Shown here: piece by piece, positions 2,177 through 50,235 of the stretch
Numbering within the stretch: position 1 is the stretch's first letter
Layout of the letters: each line of letters starts with the position of its first letter
NCBI GenBank assembly: GCA_965216625.1
Contig: OZ244186.1
Location: 1,347,594-1,411,593 of the forward strand
DNA length: 64,000 nucleotides
Reading direction: 5' to 3'
DNA from: Alphaproteobacteria bacterium
GTDB taxonomy: Bacteria > Pseudomonadota > Alphaproteobacteria > JABAAW01
Made by a program: the position numbers and the translations under genes
Notes under the pieces: model-generated
The model's database searches: none
The model's input: the letters and a program-made list of their open reading frames with translations, nothing else
What the model was told of the DNA's origin: nothing

Positions 2177-3613
2177 ATGAGCGACATCAAGAACGACACG
2201 AACGACAGCAGCGACAGCACGGACGAGACGACACGACAAGTCGATCCGCCGACCCTTCTGCCTGAAGACGCGCCGAAAGACTTGGCGAAAGTCGTGGCTA
2301 CGAAGGGGGAGCGGCTTGTGCTTGCGCGCGCCTATCGTCCGAGGCGATTCGAGGATTTGATCGGACAAGAGCAGGCACGCAGAATTGTCGAGAACGCTTT
2401 ACGCAGCGATCGGTTGCATCACGCGATTCTGCTGTCGGGACCGCGTGGCACGGGCAAGACGACGATGGCGCGCCTGATCGCGCGCGCGGTGAATTGCGTT
2501 GGCAGGGGGGGTGGGGTTGATCCTTGCGGGGTGTGTTCGGCTTGCGAGGCGATGGCGAGGGGGGAGGTGATCGATGTGGTCGAGATCGACGCTGCGTCGC
2601 ACACGGGGGTTGATGGGGTGCGTGAGATTGTCGATGGGGCGGGCTATCGTCCTGTGATGATGTCGTGTCGCGTTTATATTATTGACGAGGTTCACATGTT
2701 GTCGCGCGCTGCTTTCAACGCGTTGCTGAAGACTTTGGAGGAGCCTCCGCCGCACTTGCGGTTTTTGTTTGCGACGACGGAGGTTGAGAAGGTTCCTCTG
2801 ACTGTATTGTCGCGTTGTTTGCGGTTAGAGTTGAAGCGATTAGACAGCGAGACTTTGGCAAAGCACTATACTTTTGTGAGCGAGCAGGAGGGGTGGCAGA
2901 TCGAGCGTGAGGCGGCGTTGGCGATTGCGCGTGCGGCGGAGGGATCTGTGCGCGATGGGTTATCGTTGTTGGATTGCGCGATGGTAGAGAGCGAGGGGAA
3001 GAGCATTGTGTTGGAGCGGGTTCGAGAGATGTTGTTTCTTTCGGATGGGCATGCTTTGTATGATTTGTTGGGGTCGATTGTGGATGGAGATTTATCGGTA
3101 GCGTTGGGGCATTTGGATACTTTGATGTTGAAGGGTGCTCAGGCGGAGCGATTGTTGCGCGAGATGATGGAGCGGTTGCATCGTTTATCGAGGATGAAGG
3201 TTGCGGATGGTAGCAGGGGGGTTGCGAATGCGGAGACTGATTCGTCTGTGGATATGGATGCTTTGATATTGGAGCCTAGCGATCGGGAGCGTGGGGGGAA
3301 GTTAGCGGAGGGGTTATCTTTGGCGTCGTTGTCGAGGTTGTGGCAGATTGCTTTACGGGGTTATGAGGAGTTGCGATTGGCGCCGCATCCTCGCTCGGCG
3401 TTGGATATGGTTGTTGTGCGGTTGGTGGGGGCGGCGGGCATGCCTTTACCGCAGGAGATTTTGGCGAGGTTGGCGCGGGGAGAAGAAGGAGCGCGGGGAG
3501 CTAACGAAGAGAAAAAAGAAGAAGAAAAGAAGGAAGAAAAGCAGGGTGGTGGATATGAGGAAAAGTTGCGGGAGACTTTTCCGGGGGCGACCATTGAGGA
3601 GCGTTTTGAATAA
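2177..3613 (+). CDS. dnaX: DNA polymerase III subunit gamma/tau; short, roughly gamma-length form with a charged low-complexity tail
   Basis: Walker A GPRGTGKTT, then CGVCSACEAM and VYIIDEVHML. It is 478 aa and ends in EEKKEEEKKEEKQGGG. Confidence 0.9.
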   Translation: MSDIKNDTNDSSDSTDETTRQVDPPTLLPEDAPKDLAKVVATKGERLVLARAYRPRRFEDLIGQEQARRIVENALRSDRLHHAILLSGPRGTGKTTMARLIARAVNCVGRGGGVDPCGVCSACEAMARGEVIDVVEIDAASHTGVDGVREIVDGAGYRPVMMSCRVYIIDEVHMLSRAAFNALLKTLEEPPPHLRFLFATTEVEKVPLTVLSRCLRLELKRLDSETLAKHYTFVSEQEGWQIEREAALAIARAAEGSVRDGLSLLDCAMVESEGKSIVLERVREMLFLSDGHALYDLLGSIVDGDLSVALGHLDTLMLKGAQAERLLREMMERLHRLSRMKVADGSRGVANAETDSSVDMDALILEPSDRERGGKLAEGLSLASLSRLWQIALRGYEELRLAPHPRSALDMVVVRLVGAAGMPLPQEILARLARGEEGARGANEEKKEEEKKEEKQGGGYEEKLRETFPGATIEERFE

Positions 3614-3765
3614 GAGGCTACGCATATCGCGCTACGCGCGAAATGCGTAGAAGGCGCTTACGCGCCCCGCTGACGCGGGGTCTTTTGCGGGGGGACTGCG
3701 TCCCCCCACACCCCCCATGCGCAAAACTCGCTGCGCCTACGGCTCGCTCGTCTTGCGTTTCCATC
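3614..3765. repeat. Mosaic palindromic intergenic repeat, copy 1 (REP/RIME-like)
   Basis: It contains three modules that recur elsewhere: ctacgcat...atgcgtag, ccccgctgacgcgggg and ggggggactgcgtcccccc/catgcgcaaaac. Copies lie at about 21620, 30510-31000, 31940-32500, 46575-47100 and 49655-50235. Confidence 0.8.
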
Positions 3766-5145: not shown

Positions 5146-5652
5146 TCAGCTGCTCTCCTCGTCCGCAACCTCGACATCGCCAGCCTCGCCAGCAGCCTCG
5201 CCGCCAGCAGCAACAGCCTCGACATCGCCAGCAGCCTCGCCGCCAGCCTCGTCAGTAGCCTCTGTCGCCTCGGCCGCCTCTGCTCCGAAGATAGCCTCCG
5301 CATGGATTTCAGGCAGAACCTCGGTGGAATGTCCCTCGAAAGAAACTACCCCTTCCGCAGCTAAACCCGCGCTTACCCCCTCCTCGCCCTCTTCGGCTGC
5401 CGCCTCGATCGGAGAGAATCGCCGATGGTTTCTCACGATCGAATCTTCCAAAGCATCGATATCCAAATTGCCCTGCATGATCTCCCGCAAGGCAATCACA
5501 GCGTTTTTCTCATGCTTGATCACACGATCACGCTCCACCGTAGGCTCGACACCGCTCGCCAACTCGCGCCCGCGCTGTGCGCCGCACATCACCAGCCGAA
5601 AACGATTCGCTATTAAATCAACACTGTCTTCTATCGATACACGCGCCATCAC
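5146..5652 (-). CDS. rpoZ: DNA-directed RNA polymerase subunit omega with a long acidic C-terminal tail
   Basis: MARVSIEDSVDLIANRFRLVMCGAQRGREL matches the RpoZ N-terminal consensus. The last ~60 residues are an Ala/Glu/Gly acidic repeat. Confidence 0.8.
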   Translation of the reverse strand: MMARVSIEDSVDLIANRFRLVMCGAQRGRELASGVEPTVERDRVIKHEKNAVIALREIMQGNLDIDALEDSIVRNHRRFSPIEAAAEEGEEGVSAGLAAEGVVSFEGHSTEVLPEIHAEAIFGAEAAEATEATDEAGGEAAGDVEAVAAGGEAAGEAGDVEVADEESS

Positions 5653-5662
5653 AACACCTCAC

Positions 5663-7249
5663 TCACGAAGTTTTAGTTTTAAAAGGGATACCAATGTAAA
5701 GGTCGCGCTTGCCTTGCAAGTCGGAAACCCTCAACAACACAACTTTACGCCCCGCCTTCTTCGCCTTCGCCAAGACACGTCCCGCCTCCTCGACAGAGGC
5801 AACCTTGACACCATTGATCTCGCGAATCACATTACCGCGCTGCAAACCCTTCTCGGCAGCCTCGATGCCCGCCTTCACAACAACGAGCCCCTCGACCGAG
5901 CGCGGAACCTTGTTGCGCGAGCGCACCAAAGCGGTCAAGGCAACAACCTCGACCTCGATCAAAGACAAGGATGCCGTCTTAACCTGCTTATCCGCAACAA
6001 CGCCGTTGCGAGAACCTTCGCTCTTTTTGCTCCCCCCCTTACTTCCTCCGCGCGTGCTGGCAAGCCGCTGCTCGCTCTGACGCGCCACCTTCAGCGACAA
6101 AACAAGCCGCTTGCCGTCGCGCAAAACCTCGACGGGAACTGTCTTGCCGATCGGCGTTTGGGCTACCATCCACGGCAGGCGATCGTCGCGCGTCACTTTT
6201 TTGCGATTGTAAGAAACGATCACGTCGCCGCTTTGTAAGCCTGCGCGCGCTGCGGGACTTTTAGGAGCAATGCCTGAAACGATAACTCCCGCTGGCTTAC
6301 GAGACCCCTTCCATCCCAAGCCTGCTGCGATATCTTCTGTGACGGGCTGAAAGGCTATTCCCATCCACGCGCGTTGCGCTTCGCCGTGCTGTCCGAGTTG
6401 CTCTACGATCGTGCGCGCTACTCGCGAGGGAATGGCGAATCCGATTCCGATCGATCCTCCGCTGGGCGAGACGATCGCCGTGTTGATGCCGATCACGCGC
6501 CCGGAGAGGTCAAACAGGGGCCCTCCTGAGTTGCCGCGATTGATCGGCGCGTCCGTCTGAATAAAGTCGTCGTAGGGACCTGCGCGAATATCGCGTCCGC
6601 GTGCGGAGACGATTCCTGCGGTCACGCTACCGCCAAAGCCGAGCGGGTTTCCGATCGCCATGACCCAATCTCCTACTCGCGTCCTATCCGAATCGCCCCA
6701 CGACACGGCGGGCAGGTCTTTGTGGTGCTTGACGCGCAACAGCGCTAGGTCGGTTTGAACGTCCTTGCCGACCACTTCTGCCGCCATTTTTGTTCCGTCT
6801 TGTAGCACGACAACGATGCTCTCTGCCTTGTCGATCACATGGTTGTTTGTGACGATCAGCCCTTTGGCGTCGATCACGAAGCCCGACCCTTGCGAGCGAG
6901 GACGCCTGCGTTGTTGCGGGGTGCCTTGTCCTTTTTGTCCTTGTTGCTCGCGGAATTGTCGAAAGAGTTCTTCTAGTTGCGAGCCAGGCGGTGCGCGAAA
7001 CTCGAACTGCAAACCGCTACGCCGCTTGCTTTCGCTGACGGCGTGGCGCGCCTGAATATTGACGACGGACGGAGAGAGTTTCTCGGCGAGGTCGGCGAAG
7101 GAGCTCGGACGCGCGCGCGCATCCGCTGTTGTGACAACGCCGCACGAAAGCAGGAGCAAGGAAAAAATTGCAACCGCAGGCACATTTGCCGACAGCACAC
7201 GCGAGAGGATAGACATACGAGACGAGGAAGAGACGAGGAGTCGAAACAA
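5663..7249 (-). CDS. htrA: Periplasmic serine endoprotease DegP/HtrA (Do family) with PDZ domains
   Basis: Signal peptide present. Catalytic motifs are TNNHV, DLALL and GNSGGPL, followed by PDZ-like segments. Confidence 0.9.
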   Translation of the reverse strand: MFRLLVSSSSRMSILSRVLSANVPAVAIFSLLLLSCGVVTTADARARPSSFADLAEKLSPSVVNIQARHAVSESKRRSGLQFEFRAPPGSQLEELFRQFREQQGQKGQGTPQQRRRPRSQGSGFVIDAKGLIVTNNHVIDKAESIVVVLQDGTKMAAEVVGKDVQTDLALLRVKHHKDLPAVSWGDSDRTRVGDWVMAIGNPLGFGGSVTAGIVSARGRDIRAGPYDDFIQTDAPINRGNSGGPLFDLSGRVIGINTAIVSPSGGSIGIGFAIPSRVARTIVEQLGQHGEAQRAWMGIAFQPVTEDIAAGLGWKGSRKPAGVIVSGIAPKSPAARAGLQSGDVIVSYNRKKVTRDDRLPWMVAQTPIGKTVPVEVLRDGKRLVLSLKVARQSEQRLASTRGGSKGGSKKSEGSRNGVVADKQVKTASLSLIEVEVVALTALVRSRNKVPRSVEGLVVVKAGIEAAEKGLQRGNVIREINGVKVASVEEAGRVLAKAKKAGRKVVLLRVSDLQGKRDLYIGIPFKTKTS

Positions 7250-7433: not shown

Positions 7434-9011
7434 ATGGCACAAGAAACGGCAGAAGTTTCTACGGATGTTTCTTCGGAGCGTCGTCGTGGTGGCGGTCGAG
7501 AGGGTCGTCGTGCGCTCCGTGCGCAAGCGGCGGTTGATCGGCGTGACACGGCTGCGGCGTATATCAAGCGTGGCATGCCTGTCTACAACTACTTCAGCGA
7601 GGAGCAGATCGACCGCATTTGCGACAACGGCGCGAAGATTCTGAAGGACATCGGCTTGGAGTTTCGTGAGGATGAGGAATCGCTCGCCTTGTGGAGGCAA
7701 GCGGGAGCTAAGGTGGAGGGTGAGCGCGTTCGCTGCGACGAATCCACGCTGTTGGATATCGTCAAGAGCGTGCCTTCTCAGTTCACGCTGCATGCGCGCA
7801 ATCCGAAACGCTCGGTACAGATCGGCGGAGATGCGATGGTGTTTTTGCCTACTTATGGACCTCCGTTTGTGCGCTCGCTGAAGGAGGGACGACGCTATGC
7901 GACGATCGAGGACTTTCGCAATTTTTCAAAGTTGACCTACTTATCGCCGGCGCTGCACCACAACGGCGGCACGCTGTGCGAGCCTACCGATCTTCCCGTC
8001 AACAAGCGGCACTTGGAGATGCTCTACAGCCACGTGCGCTATTCGGACAAGGGCTTTCTCGGCTCTGTGACGGCGCCTGAGCGAGCGCAAGATTCCGTCG
8101 ACTTTGCCAAAATCATCTTCGGCGAAGAGTTCACCGACAACAACGCTGTTATCAGCGCGATCATCAATGTCAACTCGCCGCTCGTCTTCGACAACACGAT
8201 GACGGGCGCACTGAAGGTCTATGCGCGCGCGAACCAGCCTTGCATCGTCTCGCCTTTCATCTTGTCGGGAGCCATGGGACCCGTCACCGTGGCAGGCACG
8301 CTTTCGCAAATCTACGCCGAGAGTCTGCTGGGCGCAGCTCTCGTACAGCTCTACCGCAAGGGAGCGCCGCACATCATGGGAACATTTGCGACCTCGCTCT
8401 CGATGCTCTCAGGCGCGCCTTGCTTTGGGACTGCCGAATCCAGCATGGTGCAGCTCGGCTGTGGGCAGATTGCGCGCAGGTTGGGCTTTCCGTTGCGCTC
8501 TAGCGGTGCTTTGTGTGGCTCTAAAATCATGGACGCGCAGGCAGCTTACGAATCGGCGATCTCTATGCAAACGAATCTGTTTGCGGGCAACAATGTCGTC
8601 ATGCACACGGCGGGATGGCTGGAGGGAGGCTTAGTGATGGACTACGAAAAATTCGTGTTAGACGCAGACCAAGCCATGGCTTTCGTCAGGTTGGCTACTC
8701 CTCCTGATACGGACGAGAACCAACTGGCTTTCGATGCGTTGCAAGAGGTCGGACCTGGCGGACACTACTTGGGCTGCGCGCACACGCAAGCCAACTTCGA
8801 GAGCGCCTTCCACAACTCGCCCTTCGTTGACAACGAGTCCTTCGAGCGATGGAAAGCCGAGGGAGAAAAGGACATGGTTGCGCGCGCTGCGGACAAGGTC
8901 GAGCGTATGTTGAACGAGTACGAGGCGCCGCCGATCGACGAGGCACTCGATGAAAACCTGCTCGAATTCATCAAGCGGCGTAAGGAGTCTATGCCTGATT
9001 CATGGATTTAG
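7434..9011 (+). CDS. MttB-family (trimethylamine/glycine betaine) methyltransferase, non-pyrrolysine type
   Basis: 525 aa with MttB superfamily features (COG5598), including GLEFREDEE. An RBS ggagg sits upstream of the ATG at 7434. Confidence 0.8.
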   Translation: MAQETAEVSTDVSSERRRGGGREGRRALRAQAAVDRRDTAAAYIKRGMPVYNYFSEEQIDRICDNGAKILKDIGLEFREDEESLALWRQAGAKVEGERVRCDESTLLDIVKSVPSQFTLHARNPKRSVQIGGDAMVFLPTYGPPFVRSLKEGRRYATIEDFRNFSKLTYLSPALHHNGGTLCEPTDLPVNKRHLEMLYSHVRYSDKGFLGSVTAPERAQDSVDFAKIIFGEEFTDNNAVISAIINVNSPLVFDNTMTGALKVYARANQPCIVSPFILSGAMGPVTVAGTLSQIYAESLLGAALVQLYRKGAPHIMGTFATSLSMLSGAPCFGTAESSMVQLGCGQIARRLGFPLRSSGALCGSKIMDAQAAYESAISMQTNLFAGNNVVMHTAGWLEGGLVMDYEKFVLDADQAMAFVRLATPPDTDENQLAFDALQEVGPGGHYLGCAHTQANFESAFHNSPFVDNESFERWKAEGEKDMVARAADKVERMLNEYEAPPIDEALDENLLEFIKRRKESMPDSWI

Positions 9012-21617: not shown

Positions 21618-21775
21618 GTCGCTACAGGTAGCCTAGCCGATGGCGGGCGAAAGGTCAATTTACGAAACGCGCGTAGAAGGCGCTATCGCGCCCCGCTGAC
21701 GCGGGGTCTTCGTGGGGGGAATTTATCCCCCCACACCCCCCCGCGTGCTACGCACGCGATGTTTTGCGCCCGTAA
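21618..21775. repeat. Mosaic palindromic intergenic repeat, copy 2
   Basis: It shares gcgcgtagaaggcgctatcgcgccccgctgacgcggggtctt...ggggggaatttatcccccc with the other copies. Confidence 0.8.
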
Positions 21776-21795
21776 AGACTACCCACTCCCATCAT

Positions 21796-30509: not shown

Positions 30510-31000
30510 TTGTTGATTAGGTAACATACGCAAGACGAGCGAGCCTTAAGATTAGTTTTGGGCGAAGCGAGTTTTGCGCATGGGGGGGGGGGCGACGGGC
30601 TTTTTGTATTGACGGGCGGAAAACATCGCGTGCGTAGCACGCGGGGGGGTGTGGGGGGATAAATTCCCCCCACGAAGACCCCGCGTCAGCGGGGCGCGAT
30701 AGCGCCTTCTACGCACTCGCGCGAAGCGCGAGATGCGTAGCCTCTTATTCAAAAGCACGTTGCTTGCCTCGCGCAAGGGGAATTTATCCCCAAGCTGACT
30801 CGCAATGCGGTAGAGCGTTTTTAATTTTGCCTAGAATCTAGAGATAAAAAGAATCGCGCGGAGCGCGCCTCTTATTCAAAAGCGCGTTGCTTGCAACGCG
30901 CAAGGGGAATTTATCCCCAAGCTGACTCGTAACACGGTAGAGCGTCTTTAATTTTGCCTAGAATCTAGAGATAAAAAGAATCGCGCGGAGCGCGAAAAAA
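30510..31000. repeat. Array of mosaic palindromic repeats, including two tandem ~125-bp units (30733..30857 and 30858..30982)
   Basis: Directly visible. The units are cctcttattcaaaagcgcg...gcgcaaggggaatttatccccaagctgactcg(t/c)aa(c/t)(a/g)cggtagagcgt...ttgcctagaatctagagataaaaagaatcgcgcggagcgcg. Confidence 0.85.
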
Positions 31001-31939: not shown

Positions 31940-32500
31940 AAAAGCAGCTTGCCGTGTTACGAGTCAGCTTGGGGATAAATTCCCCTTGCGCGTTTCTGCG
32001 AAACGCGCTTTTGAATAAGAGGCGCACTTCGTGCGTTCTTTTTTCCTCTATCTTCTAGGCAAAATTAAAAACTCTCTACCGTGTTACGAGTCAGCTTGCG
32101 CACGCCTTCGGCGTGCGCTTTTGAATACGAGGCGCGCTACGCGCGATTCTTTTTATCTCTAGGACGAGGAAAACAATCTCGCCGTACCATGTTACGAGTC
32201 AGCTCGGGGATAAATTCCCCTTGCGCACGGCAAGCCGTGCGCTTTTGAATAAGAGGCTACGCATCTCGCGCTTCGCGCGAAATGCGTAGAAAAGCGCACT
32301 GCGTGCGCGAGGGGATAAATTCCCCCCGCTGACGCGGGGTCTTTTGCGAGGGATTACTCCCTCGCGCTCCCCGCGTGCTACGCACGCGATGTTTTGCATC
32401 CGTCAATATAAAAAGCGCGTCAAGACAAAAAGCCCGTCAAGACAAAAAGCCCGTCAAGACAAAAAGTCCGTTACGCATCCGTAGTTCTGCTACAATCCCC
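31940..32500. repeat. Array of the same mosaic repeats in the inverted orientation relative to 30510..31000, followed by three tandem 17-nt units gtcaagacaaaaagccc (32417..32467)
   Basis: The units cgctctaccgtgttacgagtcagcttggggataaattcccc..., gcttttgaataagagg and ccccgctgacgcgggg are reverse complements of those in the left array. Confidence 0.85.
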
Positions 32501-36633: not shown

Positions 36634-36755
36634 GGGACGGCAACGCCCTACTCTTCCACGCCACGAGGACGCAGTACCATCGGCGCAGGAGGCTTTCACG
36701 TTCGAGTTCGGAAAGGGATCGGGTGTTGAGCCCTCCGCTATGATCGCCGCCCCGT
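36634..36755 (-). rRNA. rrf: 5S rRNA
   Basis: Reverse complement ...GGCGGCGATCATAGCGGAGGGCTCAACACCCGATCCCTTTCCGAACTCGAACGTGAAAGCCTCCTGCGCCGATGGTACTGCGTCCTCGTGGCGTGGAAGAGTAGGGCGTTGCCGTCCC. Confidence 0.85.
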
Positions 36756-37018
36756 CACTGCACGGAAACAAATCATGGATTTTTTTCGACAAGTTTGTTT
36801 GTCGTTTTTGTTTTGAGAACGCTTTTCAATTTTTAGTAATTTCTGTCACAGCATTATCTATGCGCTGAGGCGCTGCTTGCGTTTTGTCGAAGCAAAGAGC
36901 GTTAAGGTCAATCGAGAGATTAGTACCGGTCGGCTCCACATGTTACCATGCTTCCACCTCCGGCCTATCGACGTGGTGTTCTTCCACGGCTCTGATAGCG
37001 ATATCTATTTTCGAGGTT

Positions 37019-37051
<33 letters not shown>

Positions 37052-37219
37052 AGACCGTACTTGGCTACCCGGCACTGCCACTGGCGTGACAACCGGTACA
37101 CTATAGGTACGTCCACTCCGGTCCTCTCGTACTAGGAGCAGCTACTCTCAGATATCGAACACCCACGGCAGATAGGGACCGAACTGTCTCACGACGTTCT
37201 AAACCCAACTCACGTACCA

Positions 37220-37270
<51 letters not shown>

Positions 37271-37326
37271 TGATGAGTCGACATCGAGGTGCCAAACACC
37301 CCCGTCGATGTGAACTCTTGGGGGGT

Positions 37327-37380
<54 letters not shown>

Positions 37381-37808
37381 TCGGGACCACCGGATCACTA
37401 TGACCGACTTTCGTCTCTGTTCGGCCCGTCGGCCTTACAGTCAGGCAGGCTTGTGCCATTGCGCTCATCGGCTGATTTCCGACCAGCCTGAGCCTACCAT
37501 TGCGCGCCTCCGTTACTCTTTGGGAGGCGACCGCCCCAGTCAAACTACCCACCACGCAGGGTTCCGGCTCCTCCACGGAGTCGGTTAGATGACAAATACA
37601 GCAAGGGTGGTATCTCAAGGTTGCCTCCACCTCGACTAGCGTCGAGGTTTCTCAGGCTCCCACCTATCCTGCACGTGATGCATCTGGCATCACTGCGAAG
37701 TTGTAGTAAAGGTGCACGGGGTCTTTCCGTCTAACCGTGGGAACTCCGCATTTTCACGGAGAGTTCAATTTCGCTGAGTCTGTGTTGGAGACAGTGGGGA
37801 GATCGTTG

Positions 37809-37897
<89 letters not shown>

Positions 37898-37974
37898 TTC
37901 AGGAGCTTTCACCCCATCCCTTAACCTTCCGGCACCGGGCAGGCGTCAGACCCTATACTTCGTCTTACGACTTT

Positions 37975-38007
<33 letters not shown>

Positions 38008-38493
38008 CCCCTGATTTCGTGCCCCCCGCGACGGCTTGCGCCGCTGCGGGGCCTCCTTTTCCCGAAGTTACGGAGGTAATTTGCCGAGTTCCTTCAACAC
38101 AGTTTTCTCACGCGCCTTGGTATGCTCAACCGATCCACCAGTGTCGGTTTAGGGTACGGTCTAAAGCTGGGGTTCTTTCCAGGAACGACTTCCCCTGCCT
38201 TCGCAATCCGATCAGCGAAGACAAGAAAGGTCATCCGTCACCTCCAGCAGGCTCAGGAATATTAACCTGATTCCCATCGTCTACGGCTTTCGCCCTCGAC
38301 TTAGGGGCCGGCTCACCCTACGCGGACGAGCCTTGCGTAGGAAACCTTGGATTCTCGGCGGGGGTGATTCTCACACCCCTTGACGCTACTCATGTCAGCA
38401 TTCTCACTTCCGATACCTCCACGACACCTTACGACGCCGCTTCACAGGCTTACGGAACGCTCCGCTACCGATGCAACAGAATCTGTCCGTCGT

Positions 38494-38998
38494 CAATTAA
38501 TCATCATTTAAATTGCGCTCCTATCCCTTCTATAAGCCAACTAGGGATGGAGTCAGAATCTCCATCCCCGTTAGCAATGTCAAATCGTTTTGACTAGTTC
38601 GCTCTTTTGCAAGCCCCATCCTCACAAGAATAAATTTGGGGAGACAAAGGGATGCCGAAAACATGACGAGGAATCGCCAGATAACCTGCTGGCGCATCAA
38701 TTGTGTCGGTACTGCCTCCAAAATAGATCCCGCCAGTGGTACATCCACCCAAGGCAAATATTCCCACAAGAGCCACAGCTACGATAAGAGATTTTTTCAT
38801 GTCATCCTCCTACAAGGATTGTTGAGAAACTGCCTCTCGCGCTCGTGCGCGGAGGCACTGCCTTATCGGCAGGTGGAGCGATGATAGTATGAAAAAAGGC
38901 TTTGACAACCTTTTTTGCTTTTCACCATCTCCTCCTCGTGTTTCTTTTTTCCCTTGAAGGAGGGACATGAAATTGACGACGCACAGATTCTGTTACAT
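38494..38998 (-). other. ~505-nt intervening sequence replacing 23S helix 45; long (~28 bp) closing inverted repeat
   Basis: The rRNA sense reads GAAGCTGCGGG|ATGTAACAGAATCTGTGCGTCGTCAATT...AATTGACGACGGACAGATTCTGTTGCAT|CGGTAGCGGAGCGTTCC. The flanks match E. coli positions about 1160-1190, where helix 45 IVSs are known. Confidence 0.75.
38594..38800 (-). CDS. Small lipoprotein (68 aa; ~48-aa mature peptide with a C-terminal Cys pair) encoded inside the 23S IVS, in the rRNA sense
   Basis: MKKSLIVAVALVGIFALGGC is a lipobox, followed by ...YSCEDGACKRAN. The RBS is aggagga. A conserved hairpin ccgcgcacgagcgcg lies upstream. It is A+T-richer than the flanking rRNA. Confidence 0.5.
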   Translation of the reverse strand: MKKSLIVAVALVGIFALGGCTTGGIYFGGSTDTIDAPAGYLAIPRHVFGIPLSPQIYSCEDGACKRAN

Positions 38999-39059
38999 CC
39001 CGCAGCTTCGGTATACGGCTTGAGCCCCGTTACATCTTCGACGCAGGAAGGCTTGATTA

Positions 39060-39123
<64 letters not shown>

Positions 39124-39680
39124 TGGCTTTCCCACATTCTTTCCCACTTAGCCGTAATTTAGGGACCTTAGCTGGCGGTCAGGGCTGTTTCCCTTTTGAC
39201 GACGGACCTTAGCACCCGCCGTCTGTCTGCCGTGCTGAATCCTACAGTATTCGGAGTTTGGTTAGGTTTGGTAAGGCTCGCGCCCCCCTAGCCCATCCAG
39301 TGCTCTACCCCTGCAGGAGATCACACGACGCACTACCTAAATAGTTTTCGCGGAGAACCAGCTATTTCCGAGTTTGATTGGCCTTTCACCCCTAGCCACA
39401 GATCATCCGAAGATTTTGCAACATCTAACGGTTCGGCCCTCCAATGCGTGTTACCGCATCTTCAGCCTGTCCATGGCTAGCTCACTCGGTTTCGGGTCTT
39501 ATACTACGAACTAACGCGCCCTTTTAAGACTCGCTTTCGCTACGCCTACGCCTCACGGCTTAAGCTTGCTCGTAACACAAAGTCGCTGACCCATTATGCA
39601 AAAGGTACGCGATCACCGCACGAAGCGGCTCTCGCAGGTTGTAGGCACTCGGTTTCAGGGACTCTTTCACTCCCCGCATT

Positions 39681-39726
<46 letters not shown>

Positions 39727-40613
39727 GTCGAGGAGTATTTAGGCTTGGAGGGTGGTCCCCCCACATTCAGGCAAGATGTCACGTGTCCCGCCCTACTCTA
39801 GAACAAATCATGCAGATTCGTGTACGGGGCTATCACCCTCTATGGCGCGTCGTTCCAGACGTCTTCCTCTTCAAGCATAATCAGCTACTGGCCTCTTCCG
39901 CGTTCGCTCGCCGCTACTAACGGAATCTCGGTTGATGTCTCTTCCTCCGGCTAATGAGATGTTTCAGTTCGCCGGGTTCGCTTCGCTGTACTTGCGTACA
40001 ACGATTCCCCACTAAGGGGAGGGTTTTCCCATTCGGATATTTTCGGATCACAGTGTGCTGGCAACTCCCCGAAACTTTTCGCAGCCTGCCACGTCCTTCA
40101 TCGCCTCTCGACGCCAAGGCATTCGCCAAGCGCCCTTTGCTACCTTTCGCTCTTTGCTGACAATTCGCAAGCAGCGCCTCAACTCATAGAGGGCTGCTGT
40201 TGACAGAAATTGTGCGTTCTTTCCGATTTCACAAAACTCCGTGCGCAACGCGCCGACAGAGCCAGAAAATCGAATTCTTACAAACGATGGACTTGTTCAA
40301 TAGTTCCCCCCGAAACGCCTCTCGTATTGCAAATACAAGCAGCGCGAAGCCCATAATAGCCGAGCCAGTACTAGAGCGCAAGAAAAAAAACACAAAAAAC
40401 GCATCAGAGATAAAAAAACACGCAAGCGAAAATTTTCCCATCCTCCCCTCTTTTGCTCCCTCTTTTTCTCTTTGTGCGCCTTGCCTCAAAGCACGCCTTG
40501 CGTAGAAAACGACGCTCTCATGTCAGCATTCTCACTTCCGATAACGCTTCTCATTCTTGCGGAACGCTCCGCTAGCGATGCAACAGAATCTGTCCGTCGT
40601 CAATTTTTTTCTT

Positions 40614-41030
40614 TTATTTAAATGGTGCTTCTACAGCACCAGGTTTCAACCTCCAGCCAGTGATAGGACTGCGTTTCCCTATCACTTTTTGCGTATAAAC
40701 TTCTCCCGTCTCAGGATGCGTAATCTCAACACGATATCTAGCACGCTTGAGATATCCCACCTTGCGCTGAAGAGGTATCGTATCGGGCGTGAGACCGCTT
40801 GCCAGCGTTTTTCCAGATGTCTCTGAAATCACAACATATTTTGCTCTCAACTCCCCAGCTCTTATGGAGATCGACTGAGGCTCATGCCCACTCGCCATCA
40901 GCGCACACCCACCAACAAACAACAGCGGGCAAACGCCAACAGCAATAAATATTAACAGCTCTCTCTTCACAACACCCTCCCGCCTAGCGTCTGGATTGGT
41001 ATGGTAGGGAGTGGGAGGCATAATGCCCAA
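40614..41030 (-). CDS. Putative lipoprotein (mature part ~100 aa); start probably the internal GTG/ATG preceding LLIFIAVGVCPLLFVGGC
   Basis: Lipobox LFVGGC, then HEPQSISIRAGELRAKYVVISETSGK.... No family assignment was possible. Confidence 0.35.
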   Translation of the reverse strand: MGIMPPTPYHTNPDARREGVVKRELLIFIAVGVCPLLFVGGCALMASGHEPQSISIRAGELRAKYVVISETSGKTLASGLTPDTIPLQRKVGYLKRARYRVEITHPETGEVYTQKVIGKRSPITGWRLKPGAVEAPFK

Positions 41031-41057
41031 TACCCCACTCCCTATCCATTTAAGTCG

Positions 41058-41258
41058 TTAATTGACAGAAGGACATACAGTTCCGCTAGAACAATCGTAG
41101 ACCTTAGGTTTCAAAGGAATCGGAATCGTAAAGATCCATAACGTCCGAGCGGCCGCAACTTTGTCATCTTTCAAAGTTGTTAATCCCATGTTTGTCACGC
41201 ACCCCCCAAGTGTAACAACAGCAACAAGAGCCACAGCTGCAATAAGAGATTTTTTCAT
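41058..41258 (-). CDS. Small lipoprotein paralogous to the IVS-encoded one (66 aa from MKKSLIAAV...; C-terminal Cys pair)
   Basis: MKKSLIAAVALVAVVTLGGC...YDCSSGTVCPSVN. Its upstream region is homologous to that of 38594..38800. The track start at 41273 includes the RBS. Confidence 0.45.
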   Translation of the reverse strand: MKKSLIAAVALVAVVTLGGCVTNMGLTTLKDDKVAAARTLWIFTIPIPLKPKVYDCSSGTVCPSVN

Positions 41259-41510
41259 GTCATCCTCCTTCAAGGATTGTTAAAAAACTGCCTCTCGCGC
41301 TCGTGCGCGGAAGCACCGCCTTTAAGCACTCCATAAGAGGCACACTTATCGGCAGGTGGCGCAATAATAGCATTAAAAAAAGTTTTATCAACCTTTTTTT
41401 GCTTTTTTTTCCGCGTCTTCTTTTTCCTTATTTGTGCGCGCGTTGGAGTTGGGAACAGACAACTCGACGTGCGCCTTGCCTCAAAGCACGCCTTGCGCCA
41501 TAGTGGAGGG

Positions 41511-42185
41511 ATGGTCGCGTTCGCTCCCTCGCTCTTGTCGGCTTCTTTTGCAACGCTCGGCGCGACGGTCACCGACTTCGAGGCTGCCGCGCCTGCCTCG
41601 CGCCCTGACCTGCTGCACTTCGACCTGATGGACGGACACTTTGTCCCCAACCTCACCTTCGGCACGCAGGTCATGAGGGATCTGCGAGGCTTGACCTCTA
41701 TCCCCTTCGACGCGCACCTCATGGTCGAGAATCCCGAACGCTACATCGATGCTTGCGCGCAAGCCAAGGTCGAGCGCGTCACCATCCACGCCGAGGCGAC
41801 GCACCACCTACCGCGCCACCTTGCGCAGATACGAGAGCAAGGCATGCTCGCAGGGGTTGCGCTCAACCCCTCGACATCGCTGGAGACCTTGCGATGGGTC
41901 AAGGAGGACTTACAATTCCTTCTCGTCATGGGGGTTAATCCTGGCTTCAGCGGACAAGCCTTCCTTCCGCAGACGATCGAGAAGGTCGCAGCAGCACGAG
42001 AAATGCTACCCGCAACCTGCGTCATCGGCGTCGACGGCGGCGTAGCTACAGACAACGCGGCGCAACTCGTGCGCGCAGGAGCCGCTATGCTGGTCGCAGG
42101 CAGCAGCCTGTTCGATTGCGGAGGAGGCAGCCCCTTGGAGGCGCTGCAAACCTTGCGCAAGGTCGTCGCAGCGACAGAGCATTAA
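41511..42185 (+). CDS. rpe: Ribulose-phosphate 3-epimerase
   Basis: MVAFAPSLLSA..., HFDLMDGHFVPN and GVDGG are Rpe motifs. The right-hand 29-bp direct repeat lies in its 5' leader. Confidence 0.9.
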   Translation: MVAFAPSLLSASFATLGATVTDFEAAAPASRPDLLHFDLMDGHFVPNLTFGTQVMRDLRGLTSIPFDAHLMVENPERYIDACAQAKVERVTIHAEATHHLPRHLAQIREQGMLAGVALNPSTSLETLRWVKEDLQFLLVMGVNPGFSGQAFLPQTIEKVAAAREMLPATCVIGVDGGVATDNAAQLVRAGAAMLVAGSSLFDCGGGSPLEALQTLRKVVAATEH

Positions 42186-46574: not shown

Positions 46575-47100
46575 CTGTTGCGCTCGCGTAACACAGACGG
46601 GCTTTTTGTATTGACGGGTAAACGCAAGACGAGCGAGCCGTAGGCGAAGTGAGTTTTGCGCATGGGGGGTGTGGGGGGACGAAGTCCCCCCGCAAAAAGC
46701 GCGCCGCGAGCGGGCGCGTAAGCGCCTTCTACGCAGTTCGCGCGTAGCGCGAGATGCGTAGCCTCTTATTCAAAAGCGCGTTTCGCAGAAACGCGCAAGC
46801 TGACTCGCGTCACAAAATCTGCTTGCCGTGTCACGAGTCAGCTTGCGCGAGGCAAAGCCTCGCGCTTTGGTACAAGAGGCTACGCACTTCGCTTCGCTCG
46901 TGCGTAGATAAAGCGCGCTTACGCGCGCTCCGCTGACGCGGGGTCTTTTGCGGGGGGACTGCGTCCCCCCCCTCCCCCCATGCGCAAAACTCACTTCGCC
47001 TTACGGCTCGCTCGTCTTGCGTATGTTACCTAATCAATAAGGGGAATTTATCCCCTCGCCCGCTCCTCATAAAGCGCAAGCCCCCCGCGCCCACACGCCA
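46575..47100. repeat. Array of mosaic palindromic repeats (copy 5)
   Basis: It contains gcaagacgagcgagccgtaggcg...gttttgcgcatggggggtgtgggggg, the ctacgcat/atgcgtag module, aagctgactcg, ccgctgacgcgggg and ggggaatttatcccc. Confidence 0.85.
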
Positions 47101-49654: not shown

Positions 49655-50235
49655 CATTTTCTTCTGCTGGTGTCTCTGCATTTACGGAGCAAGAATAGTG
49701 CCAACTTCGCGTGCAGAAACGCGCTTTTTATGTTGACGGACGCAAAACATTGCGTGCGCTTGCGTGTGTTGACGGCAAAACGCAAGACGAGCGAGCCGTA
49801 GGCGCAGCGAGTTTTGCGCATGGGGGGAGGGGGGGGACGCAGTCCCCCCGCAAAAGACCCCGCGTCAGCGGAGCGCGCGTAAGCGCGCTTTATCTACGCG
49901 CGTAGCGCGTAGCCTCTTATTCAAAAGCGCGTTTCGCAGAAACGCGCAAGCTGACTCGTAACATGGTACGGCGATTCTGTTTTGTCTCTATCTTCTAGGC
50001 AAAATTAAAGACGCTCTACCGCGTTGCGAGTCAGCTTGCGCGAGGCAAGCCTCGCGCTTTTGAATAAGAGGCTGTGCGTTTCGCTTCGCTCACGCACAGA
50101 AAAGCGCACTGCGTGCGCTCCGCTGACGCGGGGTCTTTTGCGAGGGATTACTCCCTCGCGCTCCCCGCGTGCTACGCACGCGATGTTTTGCATCCGTCAT
50201 CATACAAAGCCCGTCTGTTGTGCAAGCGCGTACCT
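49655..50235. repeat. Array of mosaic palindromic repeats (copy 6)
   Basis: Same modules as copy 5, in partly rearranged order. Confidence 0.85.

Follow-up and report, generated by a model that had tools for sequence, protein, structure and literature searches.

A lipoprotein operon with a 23S rRNA remnant in the rpe-23S spacer of an alphaproteobacterium: a probable duplication relic of the helix-45 intervening sequence

In a DNA stretch of 64,000 nt from an Alphaproteobacteria bacterium (hereafter the window; contig OZ244186.1 of assembly GCA_965216625.1, positions 1,347,594 to 1,411,593) lipoprotein genes are found both inside the 23S rRNA gene, in the intervening sequence (IVS) of helix 45, and outside it, in the spacer between the 23S gene and rpe. 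The spacer copy, or module, occupies 40474-41497 (coordinates are positions within the window, and the minus strand is the rRNA sense), and its 966-bp segment between two direct repeats probably arose once, when the helix-45 region of the adjacent 23S gene was duplicated locally through microhomology, and was trimmed later. On the minus strand the segment contains a promoter-like site, a leader, two lipoprotein genes, the IVS 3′ arm, and a 23S relic; it is placed upstream of the 23S 5′ end (40149) and hence not in the helix-45 loop. An earlier note on this DNA described it as a second lipoprotein module with 23S flank, moved by duplication or recombination either out of or into the 23S gene, which agrees with the present analysis, and the conserved 23S sequence now gives the direction, out of 23S.

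The putative donor is the resident 23S gene (36898..40149, minus strand) with its IVS of about 530 nt (38470..38999, minus strand). This IVS lies in the loop of the helix-45 hairpin, immediately 5′ of GGUAGCGGAGCGUUC, and is closed by a 29-nt stem of 93% complementarity formed by the arms 38470-38498 and 38971-38999. It includes a promoter-like site (38881-38908) and a 68-aa lipoprotein gene (38594-38800) with a terminator-like hairpin after it.

The 23S-derived relic of the module (40495..40605, minus strand, 111 nt) is aligned to 38330-38498 of the 23S gene (169 nt) from the IVS 3′ arm (40577-40605) to GTTTCCTACGCAAGGC. Two internal stretches, 21 and 36 nt long, are cleanly deleted, and identity to 23S is 100% in the 29-nt arm and in a 27-nt block. 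The 23S fragment of about 95 nt with the IVS closing repeat that had been noticed before is thus present and longer. The relic carries universally conserved 23S sequence (GGTAGCGGAGCGTTCC...); therefore the movement was out of 23S. The IVS 5′ arm was not detectable in the module, where the 3′ arm occurs alone, so that no two-armed closing stem is formed. The relic was also considered as a structured RNA element, and this was rejected (z = -0.33).

The repeats that bound the segment are exact copies of GTGCGCCTTGCCTCAAAGCACGCCTTGCG (hereafter the 29-mer) at 40474-40502 and 41469-41497, 995 nt apart, as two perfect 29-bp direct repeats around 966 bp had been reported. The last 8 nt of the rRNA-proximal copy on the plus strand (40495-40502) read CGCAAGGC in the rRNA sense, being at the same time the first 8 nt of the 29-mer in that sense and the end of the 23S homology. 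In the alignment the homology extends through ACGCAAGGC and then switches to 29-mer and spacer sequence: past CGCAAGGC the 23S gene continues as TCGTCC..., while the module continues as GTGCTTTGAGG..., the rest of the 29-mer. The homology thus reaches 8 nt into the 29-mer, and on the rRNA side 23S and rpe-upstream sequence are joined at a microhomology. The chance of such an 8-nt overlap at the junction is about 1e-5, and the donor 23S shares only these 8 of the 29 nt. The rpe-proximal copy (41469..41497) ends 13 nt before the ATG of rpe. A third 29-mer gave no matches at up to 3 mismatches in the window, nor in shuffled sequences, and no extra copies were found in the window and in the fetched loci of relatives; the 22-nt core of the 29-mer also had no matches in a one-genome-per-species collection, which does not include the source genome. 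No CRISPR-like repeat array is present, as only these two copies occur in the window, and a CRISPR- or casposon-like long target duplication was considered and rejected.

The state of both sites in relatives was established from syntenic loci of metagenome assemblies, which were reached via lipoprotein and rpe homologues and divided into clades by rpe and purB identity, the groups being about 81-83% identical to each other. Clade A includes the window, L001, and L002 (98.6-98.9% identity within) with the sister locus L089 (93% to these three), clade B includes L083 and L090 (93%), clade C includes L084-L087 (99.7-100%), and clade D is represented by the single locus L088. The window, L001, and L002 possess the spacer module and a one-gene IVS in helix 45; L089 possesses the module with many small indels and a gene-free mini-IVS, and L090 a three-gene spacer module and a mini-IVS. 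The spacers of L083, L084, L085, L087, and L088 are empty (378-447 nt) and contain one 29-mer homologue each, directly before CCATAGTGGAGG-ATG of rpe. A single homologue at every empty site means that the 29-mer is native rpe-upstream sequence, which was duplicated. A comparison with related genomes had been suggested in the earlier note; in L083 and L084 the spacer is empty, and their IVS carries the operon up to the 3′ arm (a 139-aa large lipoprotein in L083 and three genes of 71, 78, and 104 aa in L084).

The window junctions are common to L001, L002, and L089; therefore the event was inherited and is older than 7% nucleotide divergence. The two 29-mer copies already differ by 3 nt in L002 and L089, and the perfect 29/29 identity in the window is unremarkable, since about 2 differences are expected by our estimate from the rpe and purB divergence and the probability of none is about 0.13. 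The position of the operon varies: it may occupy the IVS, the spacer, both of these, or a locus away from rRNA genes, and every copy outside 23S retains the 3′ arm and some 23S flank. The small-small-large order of lipoprotein genes with the stop codon abutting the 3′ arm is common to the L084 IVS, to the spacer modules of L001 and L090, and to the more distant locus L095, and in the IVS of both L083 and L084 the promoter-like site is followed by the leader, by small lipoprotein sequence, and by the large lipoprotein gene, whose stop codon is directly at the 3′ arm. These relatives confirm that the module is a copy of the IVS operon. The clade is uncultured and, by FlaF, the flagellin type, and the DnaX model hits, alphaproteobacterium-like. 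Its helix-45 IVS holds between one and three lipoprotein genes as an operon, which has a conserved promoter-like site of its own and a strong Shine-Dalgarno (SD) sequence, and the two-gene module and one-gene IVS of the window are reduced versions of the three-gene operon.

The features typical of microhomology-mediated duplication are all found here, namely, a nearby donor in the same orientation, a short shared sequence at the junction, a flanking repeat that is the native target, and a single copy at empty sites. The donor segment would have run from upstream of the IVS promoter, via the genes and the 3′ arm, to the 23S position CGCAAGGC (the donor-equivalent segment is 38330..38498, minus strand), and it would have been joined into the rpe-23S spacer at the identical 8-mer that opens the native rpe-upstream sequence. 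This may have proceeded either by a template switch during replication or by unequal crossing-over to a tandem partial 23S copy with subsequent deletion of the duplicated spacer and of the 23S 5′ half. By either route the opening 29 nt of the spacer would come to stand on each side of the insert; the 29-mer is therefore duplicated target sequence and not an element end. Afterwards the rRNA part would have decayed by two internal deletions and loss of the 5′ arm, while the operon stayed intact. An RNA-mediated retro-copy was rejected, because an RNA that starts at the promoter or is released by RNase III would not contain the promoter and the DNA upstream of it, both of which are present in the copy.

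The proposed duplication was targeted to the upstream region of rpe (ribulose-phosphate 3-epimerase, 41511..42185, plus strand), which is divergent from the rRNA genes; purB is on the plus strand as well. A weak promoter-like arrangement, below the threshold of the promoter scan, is seen at 41476-41513: TTGCCT, a possible -35 element within the rpe-side 29-mer, is separated by 17 nt from CATAGT, and the latter by 6 nt from the ATG of rpe, which would give a nearly leaderless rpe mRNA. If this promoter is real, the rpe-side 29-mer had to survive the rearrangement because it holds a promoter element of rpe.

The module itself looks like a set of functional genes. The small lipoprotein gene (41058..41258, minus strand) encodes 66 aa with the lipobox LGGC and two C-terminal Cys and is, as had been recognized earlier, a paralogue of the IVS-encoded 68-aa protein; their identity is 45%. 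The large lipoprotein gene had been described as an open reading frame (ORF) of 138 aa; the frame 40614-41030 is indeed present, and its start is probably GTG 40970, 4 nt after GGGAGGG, which gives about 118 aa (40614..40970, minus strand). This form has a standard lipoprotein signal peptide, and homologues are 98-116 aa long; the IVS 3′ arm follows the stop codon at a distance of 8 nt. The motifs RAKYVV, GLTPDT, and YRVEITHP are conserved in the large lipoprotein family, which includes 13 representatives at E <= 1e-10 among 1.84 billion proteins. The AlphaFold2 (AF2) model consists of a signal peptide and a beta-sandwich domain (pLDDT 78.6), and a Foldseek search against PDB returned weak generic beta-sandwich matches alone (best E = 0.011). 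No Pfam match was found for the 68-, 66-, and 138-aa products and for 18 family members, and exact look-ups returned no record of the 66-aa, 68-aa, and rpe proteins of the window. The predicted lipoboxes are MKKSLIAAVALVAVVTLGG–C and ...LLFVGG–C, the Cys being invariant in both family alignments, and both module products have the features of Lgt and LspA substrates, which points to bacterial lipoproteins that would be exported as such. The ratio of nonsynonymous to synonymous divergence (dN/dS) is 0.19-0.63, and the lipoprotein genes are under purifying selection. L091 (6001-6573) and L092 (1395-1967 and 5849-6421, an inverted pair) contain distant large-lipoprotein paralogues of 163-196 aa, whose C-terminal extension ends in QCNP, at ordinary chromosomal loci beside FecR and HemolysinCabind proteins.

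The signals for expression are also retained. A sigma-70-type promoter-like site with extended TG (TTGATA-16-TATTAT; 41364..41391, minus strand) is homologous to the site within the IVS (38908-38881), its hexamers being at homologous positions in both window copies and aligned in the copies of all relatives. It is followed by the 5′ leader (41259..41363, minus strand; z = -2.7), in which one conserved hairpin is rich in GC and a second, small one pairs with the SD sequence (AUCCUU-GAAG-GAGGAU). The DNA identity of the module to the IVS is 93% over 99 nt of signal peptide, SD, and leader and 72% over 89 nt of the promoter region, which bears out the homologous promoter and ribosome-binding region proposed before. 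All operon copies keep the GC-rich hairpin and the element AUCCUU-GNAG-GAGGAU sequestering the SD sequence (in the window, 41259-41363 and 38801-38880, minus strand), and this hairpin may serve for translational control. No Rfam match was obtained for the leader, and metagenome scans with the leader plus SD pattern and with the 3′ arm gave no matches. According to these predicted signals we infer that the module is an intact, independently transcribed lipoprotein operon.

The coding content of both sites is exchanged between strains. The window and L001/L002 are near-identical over 23S and spacer, and identity falls to 40-66% across 40600-41200 only and to 42-84% across 38600-38800, i.e., exclusively in the parts that encode mature proteins. 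Synonymous divergence (dS) between the window and L001 is 1.3-1.5 for the module genes and 0.56 for the IVS gene, while for rpe and purB it is 0.012-0.032; protein identity to L001/L002 is 44-47% for the module and 63% for the IVS protein. These are alleles that were replaced and did not diverge in place. The small protein of the window module has 56% identity to the L001 IVS protein versus 44% to its positional counterpart, and the IVS operon of L084 differs from the spacer operon of L090 at dS of 0.45-1.0, about the genome level (0.56-0.67). Allele types thus follow neither the genome phylogeny nor the site. The spacer locus and the IVS are hot spots for replacement of the mature-protein part, which would proceed by homologous recombination in conserved flanks; the leader with signal peptide on one side and the C-terminus, arm, and 23S flank on the other would be the obvious route. 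The cassette-like behaviour stated in the earlier note therefore stands as far as coding content is swapped between strains that are 98.8% identical, and a site-specific cassette is not supported.

A more far-reaching interpretation, which we regard as speculative and rather doubtful, is that the rRNA gene and the copied-out fragment form a two-site cassette system for hypervariable lipoproteins, where 23S sequence around helix 45 and the relic would be portable homology arms for exchange between strains, species, and sites, and the IVS copy would be expressed at rRNA-like level, as RNase III-released mRNA plus from its own promoter. If so, the rRNA gene would be a landing pad and an expression platform for variable envelope proteins, and the use of 23S as homology arms would open a new way for variable envelope proteins to spread horizontally with the help of the most conserved gene in the genome.

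Several observations weigh against a single local duplication. At the rpe-side junction an orphan segment of 38-62 nt (41407..41468, minus strand) lies between the 29-mer and the IVS-homologous region, which begins only near an A-rich stretch upstream of the -35 element, and neither route explains it cleanly. It did not match the 5′ arm, 23S, or the spacer significantly, so that its identification as a degenerate piece of any of these was rejected; it may be old spacer, as it weakly resembles the spacer of L084 in position. In L090, which belongs to another clade, the operon occupies the same spacer with different junctions and no detectable direct repeat (a hidden second 29-mer was rejected as not significant), replaces a different stretch (L083 9870-9930), and its 23S remnant keeps part of a block deleted in clade A. 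In L095 the operon has a yggS-like gene as its neighbour, and rRNA is absent within 10.8 kb; even so, the operon is followed by a degenerate 3′ arm and the 23S remnant TCGCTAGC.TAGCGTTCC (z = 7.4). The 29-mer is absent from the extra-rRNA copies of both loci. Together they may mean that copying out is recurrent and not one-off: either there was more than one copy-out from 23S, or one old copy was remodelled and relocated.

These loci lead to the explanation that the operon is recurrently mobile, i.e., that a trans-acting or rRNA-linked process, such as template switching at the highly transcribed and structured IVS, repeatedly copies the operon with the 3′ arm and 23S flank, the window copy being one of several insertions. 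At least three junction contexts outside 23S correspond to it (the spacer of clade A, where the 29-mer is repeated, that of L090, with other junctions and no repeat, and the non-rRNA locus of L095); the L090 remnant, with its part of the 21-nt block deleted in clade A, is not derived from the clade A version, and the sisters L083 and L090 (93%) hold the operon at alternative sites. Against this, no mobility gene, terminal repeats, or shared target motif was found. A G-to-C change (TCGCTAGC), which 23S does not have, is common to the relics of L095 and clade A, a hint that the extra-rRNA copies descend from one ancestor. That the 3′ arm is always kept can be a matter of geometry, since it is at most 20 nt away from the last stop codon, although the retained arm may matter as a homology arm, and differential loss from an ancestor occupied at both sites fits the same distribution. 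On balance, recurrent mobility is considered improbable, though it is to be kept in mind.

Much less credit is given to a site-specific or replicative mobile cassette, in which the 29-bp repeats are att-like cores or a very long target-site duplication. The earlier note had preferred to see in them products of site-specific or replicative recombination, and both the perfect direct repeats around the insert and the one 29-mer per empty site, which att integration would also leave, are in line with this. The idea is at odds with the origin of the repeat, which is native rpe-upstream sequence: the donor 23S has only 8 nt of it, which does not make an att core, it is absent from the other extra-rRNA copies, and its copies differ by 3 nt in L002 and L089, so that identity is not maintained. 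In the syntenic loci, the flanks of about 10 kb have no recorded integrase, transposase, or recombinase family, no terminal inverted repeats were found at the module ends, the 5′ arm is absent, and we know of no transposase family that makes a 29-bp staggered cut. Similarly small is the probability of the reverse direction, when an ordinary chromosomal operon later entered a pre-existing non-coding helix-45 IVS. The gene-free two-armed mini-IVSs of L089 and L090, the L095 operon away from any rRNA gene, and the distant 163-196-aa paralogues at ordinary loci would agree with it; despite this, every extra-rRNA copy has the 3′ arm and conserved 23S sequence (GGTAGCGGAGCGTTCC...), which only a 23S gene could supply. 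The present copies therefore left 23S, whatever the deeper origin of the genes. Finally, rRNA regions are easily misassembled in metagenomes and L089 has many small indels here, yet a chimeric join of rRNA-region reads has a negligible chance, as the same arrangement and junctions occur in the window (on a 1.9-Mb contig) and in the independent assemblies of L001, L002, and L089 from other samples.

Some details of the related loci deserve mention in their own right. The L089 module (5150-6395) is 97.2% identical to the L001 module with 16 small indel events in 1.28 kb, while for the adjacent rpe and purB the identity is only 93.2%, with a single indel, which is in frame. Either recombination brought in this copy recently and it is decaying, or long reads of mixed strains were misassembled. 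The mini-IVSs of L089 (about 7860-7990) and L090 (about 7885-8045) keep both arms and the first 20 nt or so of the gene-bearing loop and look as though they were clean operon deletions. In L083 (7542-8387, minus strand) only the first codons of the small lipoprotein gene (MRKSL...) remain, continuing in frame into the 139-aa large lipoprotein, and three copies of CAAATTGCCAAGC lie upstream of the promoter in the IVS. The relocated operon of L095 is preceded by about 12 tandem 14-nt units (GAAGCAACAAAGAT/C; 1575-1730) and followed by three tandem copies of the IVS-arm-derived AAAATTGACGCAACT (2865-2915).

Helix-45 IVSs are well known for excision by RNase III, sporadic distribution, and horizontal transfer. 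They are usually seen as selfish or neutral spacers, and the rare ORFs in them (S23p, transposases) as decaying or serving the element. Among ORF-bearing helix-45 IVSs, S23p ORFs are described in Coxiella, Leptospira, Xanthomonas, and Brucella (PMC4990558); the S23p ORF is apparently unexpressed and decaying, the Coxiella ORF being without a usable SD sequence, and Leptospira IVSs are reported as horizontally exchanged (PMC4990558). Like the known ones, the resident element (38470-38999) replaces the helix-45 loop and has a long inverted-repeat stem and a sense-strand ORF; it is also sporadic among close relatives and apparently exchanged horizontally, as in Leptospira (PMC4990558). Unlike S23p (PF05635, a four-helix bundle), the cargo here consists of one to three lipoproteins without a Pfam match and with a beta-sandwich AF2 model, and unlike the Coxiella ORF it possesses a predicted internal promoter, a structured leader, a strong SD sequence, and dN/dS below 1. 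The spacer segment, being outside 23S and without the 5′ arm, is an IVS derivative and not an IVS.

Insertion sequence elements and transposons with transposases occur inside 23S genes of Deinococcus and Nostoc (PMC2672173), and homing-endonuclease insertions occur in rRNA genes of the Candidate Phyla Radiation (PMC11270868). The present case resembles both in protein-coding DNA inside an rRNA gene with copies elsewhere in the genome and differs in that the module has no transposase or endonuclease, terminal inverted repeats, or short target duplication, its supported ORFs being two lipoproteins only. With segmental duplications it has in common the donor 1.5-3 kb away in the same orientation, the 8-nt microhomology junction, the native flanking repeat, and the one-copy empty sites; the orphan filler at the second junction and the retention of the operon while the rRNA part decayed are dissimilar.

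Variable surface-protein cassettes that use gene conversion are represented by Anaplasma msp2, Neisseria pilE/pilS, and Borrelia vls. The likeness to these systems consists in a conserved 5′ part and 3′ flank around a hypervariable mature segment, two loci per genome, and alleles that cross sites. Unlike them, both loci here have promoter-like sites and complete genes with no silent partial cassettes, and variation is seen between strains only. In the literature, no report was found of an IVS with a promoter-equipped lipoprotein operon or of a copied-out IVS that keeps 23S flank, and no paper was found on the related assemblies.

According to the above, the IVS cargo looks like ordinary selected cellular genes, whose exchange between strains is much faster than the divergence of the genome, and the spacer copy shows how such cargo may escape the rRNA gene. 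The duplication presents a dated and junction-resolved case of a microhomology-mediated event beside a highly transcribed gene: mechanistically it would be an ordinary duplication relic within an unusual variant of IVS biology. It is also a warning for rRNA-based binning and annotation that real genes can sit within a 23S gene.

As to the surroundings, the 5S rRNA gene (36635-36751, minus strand) follows 23S, and no 16S gene is present in the window; no further copies of either lipoprotein gene, the leader, or the arms were found elsewhere in it. The order PMT_2 - 5S - 23S - rpe - purB is common to all close relatives, though not to the 65%-identity relative L096. The window also contains a hairpin-rich mosaic intergenic repeat family, to which the 29-mer does not belong (3600-3760, 21670-21780, 30560-31000, 31940-32470, 46600-47070, and 49765-50230). 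Its blocks include GGGGATAAATTCCCC, CCGCTGACGCGGGG, and TTTTGAATAAGAGGC and occur in both orientations, and at 30740-30993 a 127-nt tandem duplication is seen.

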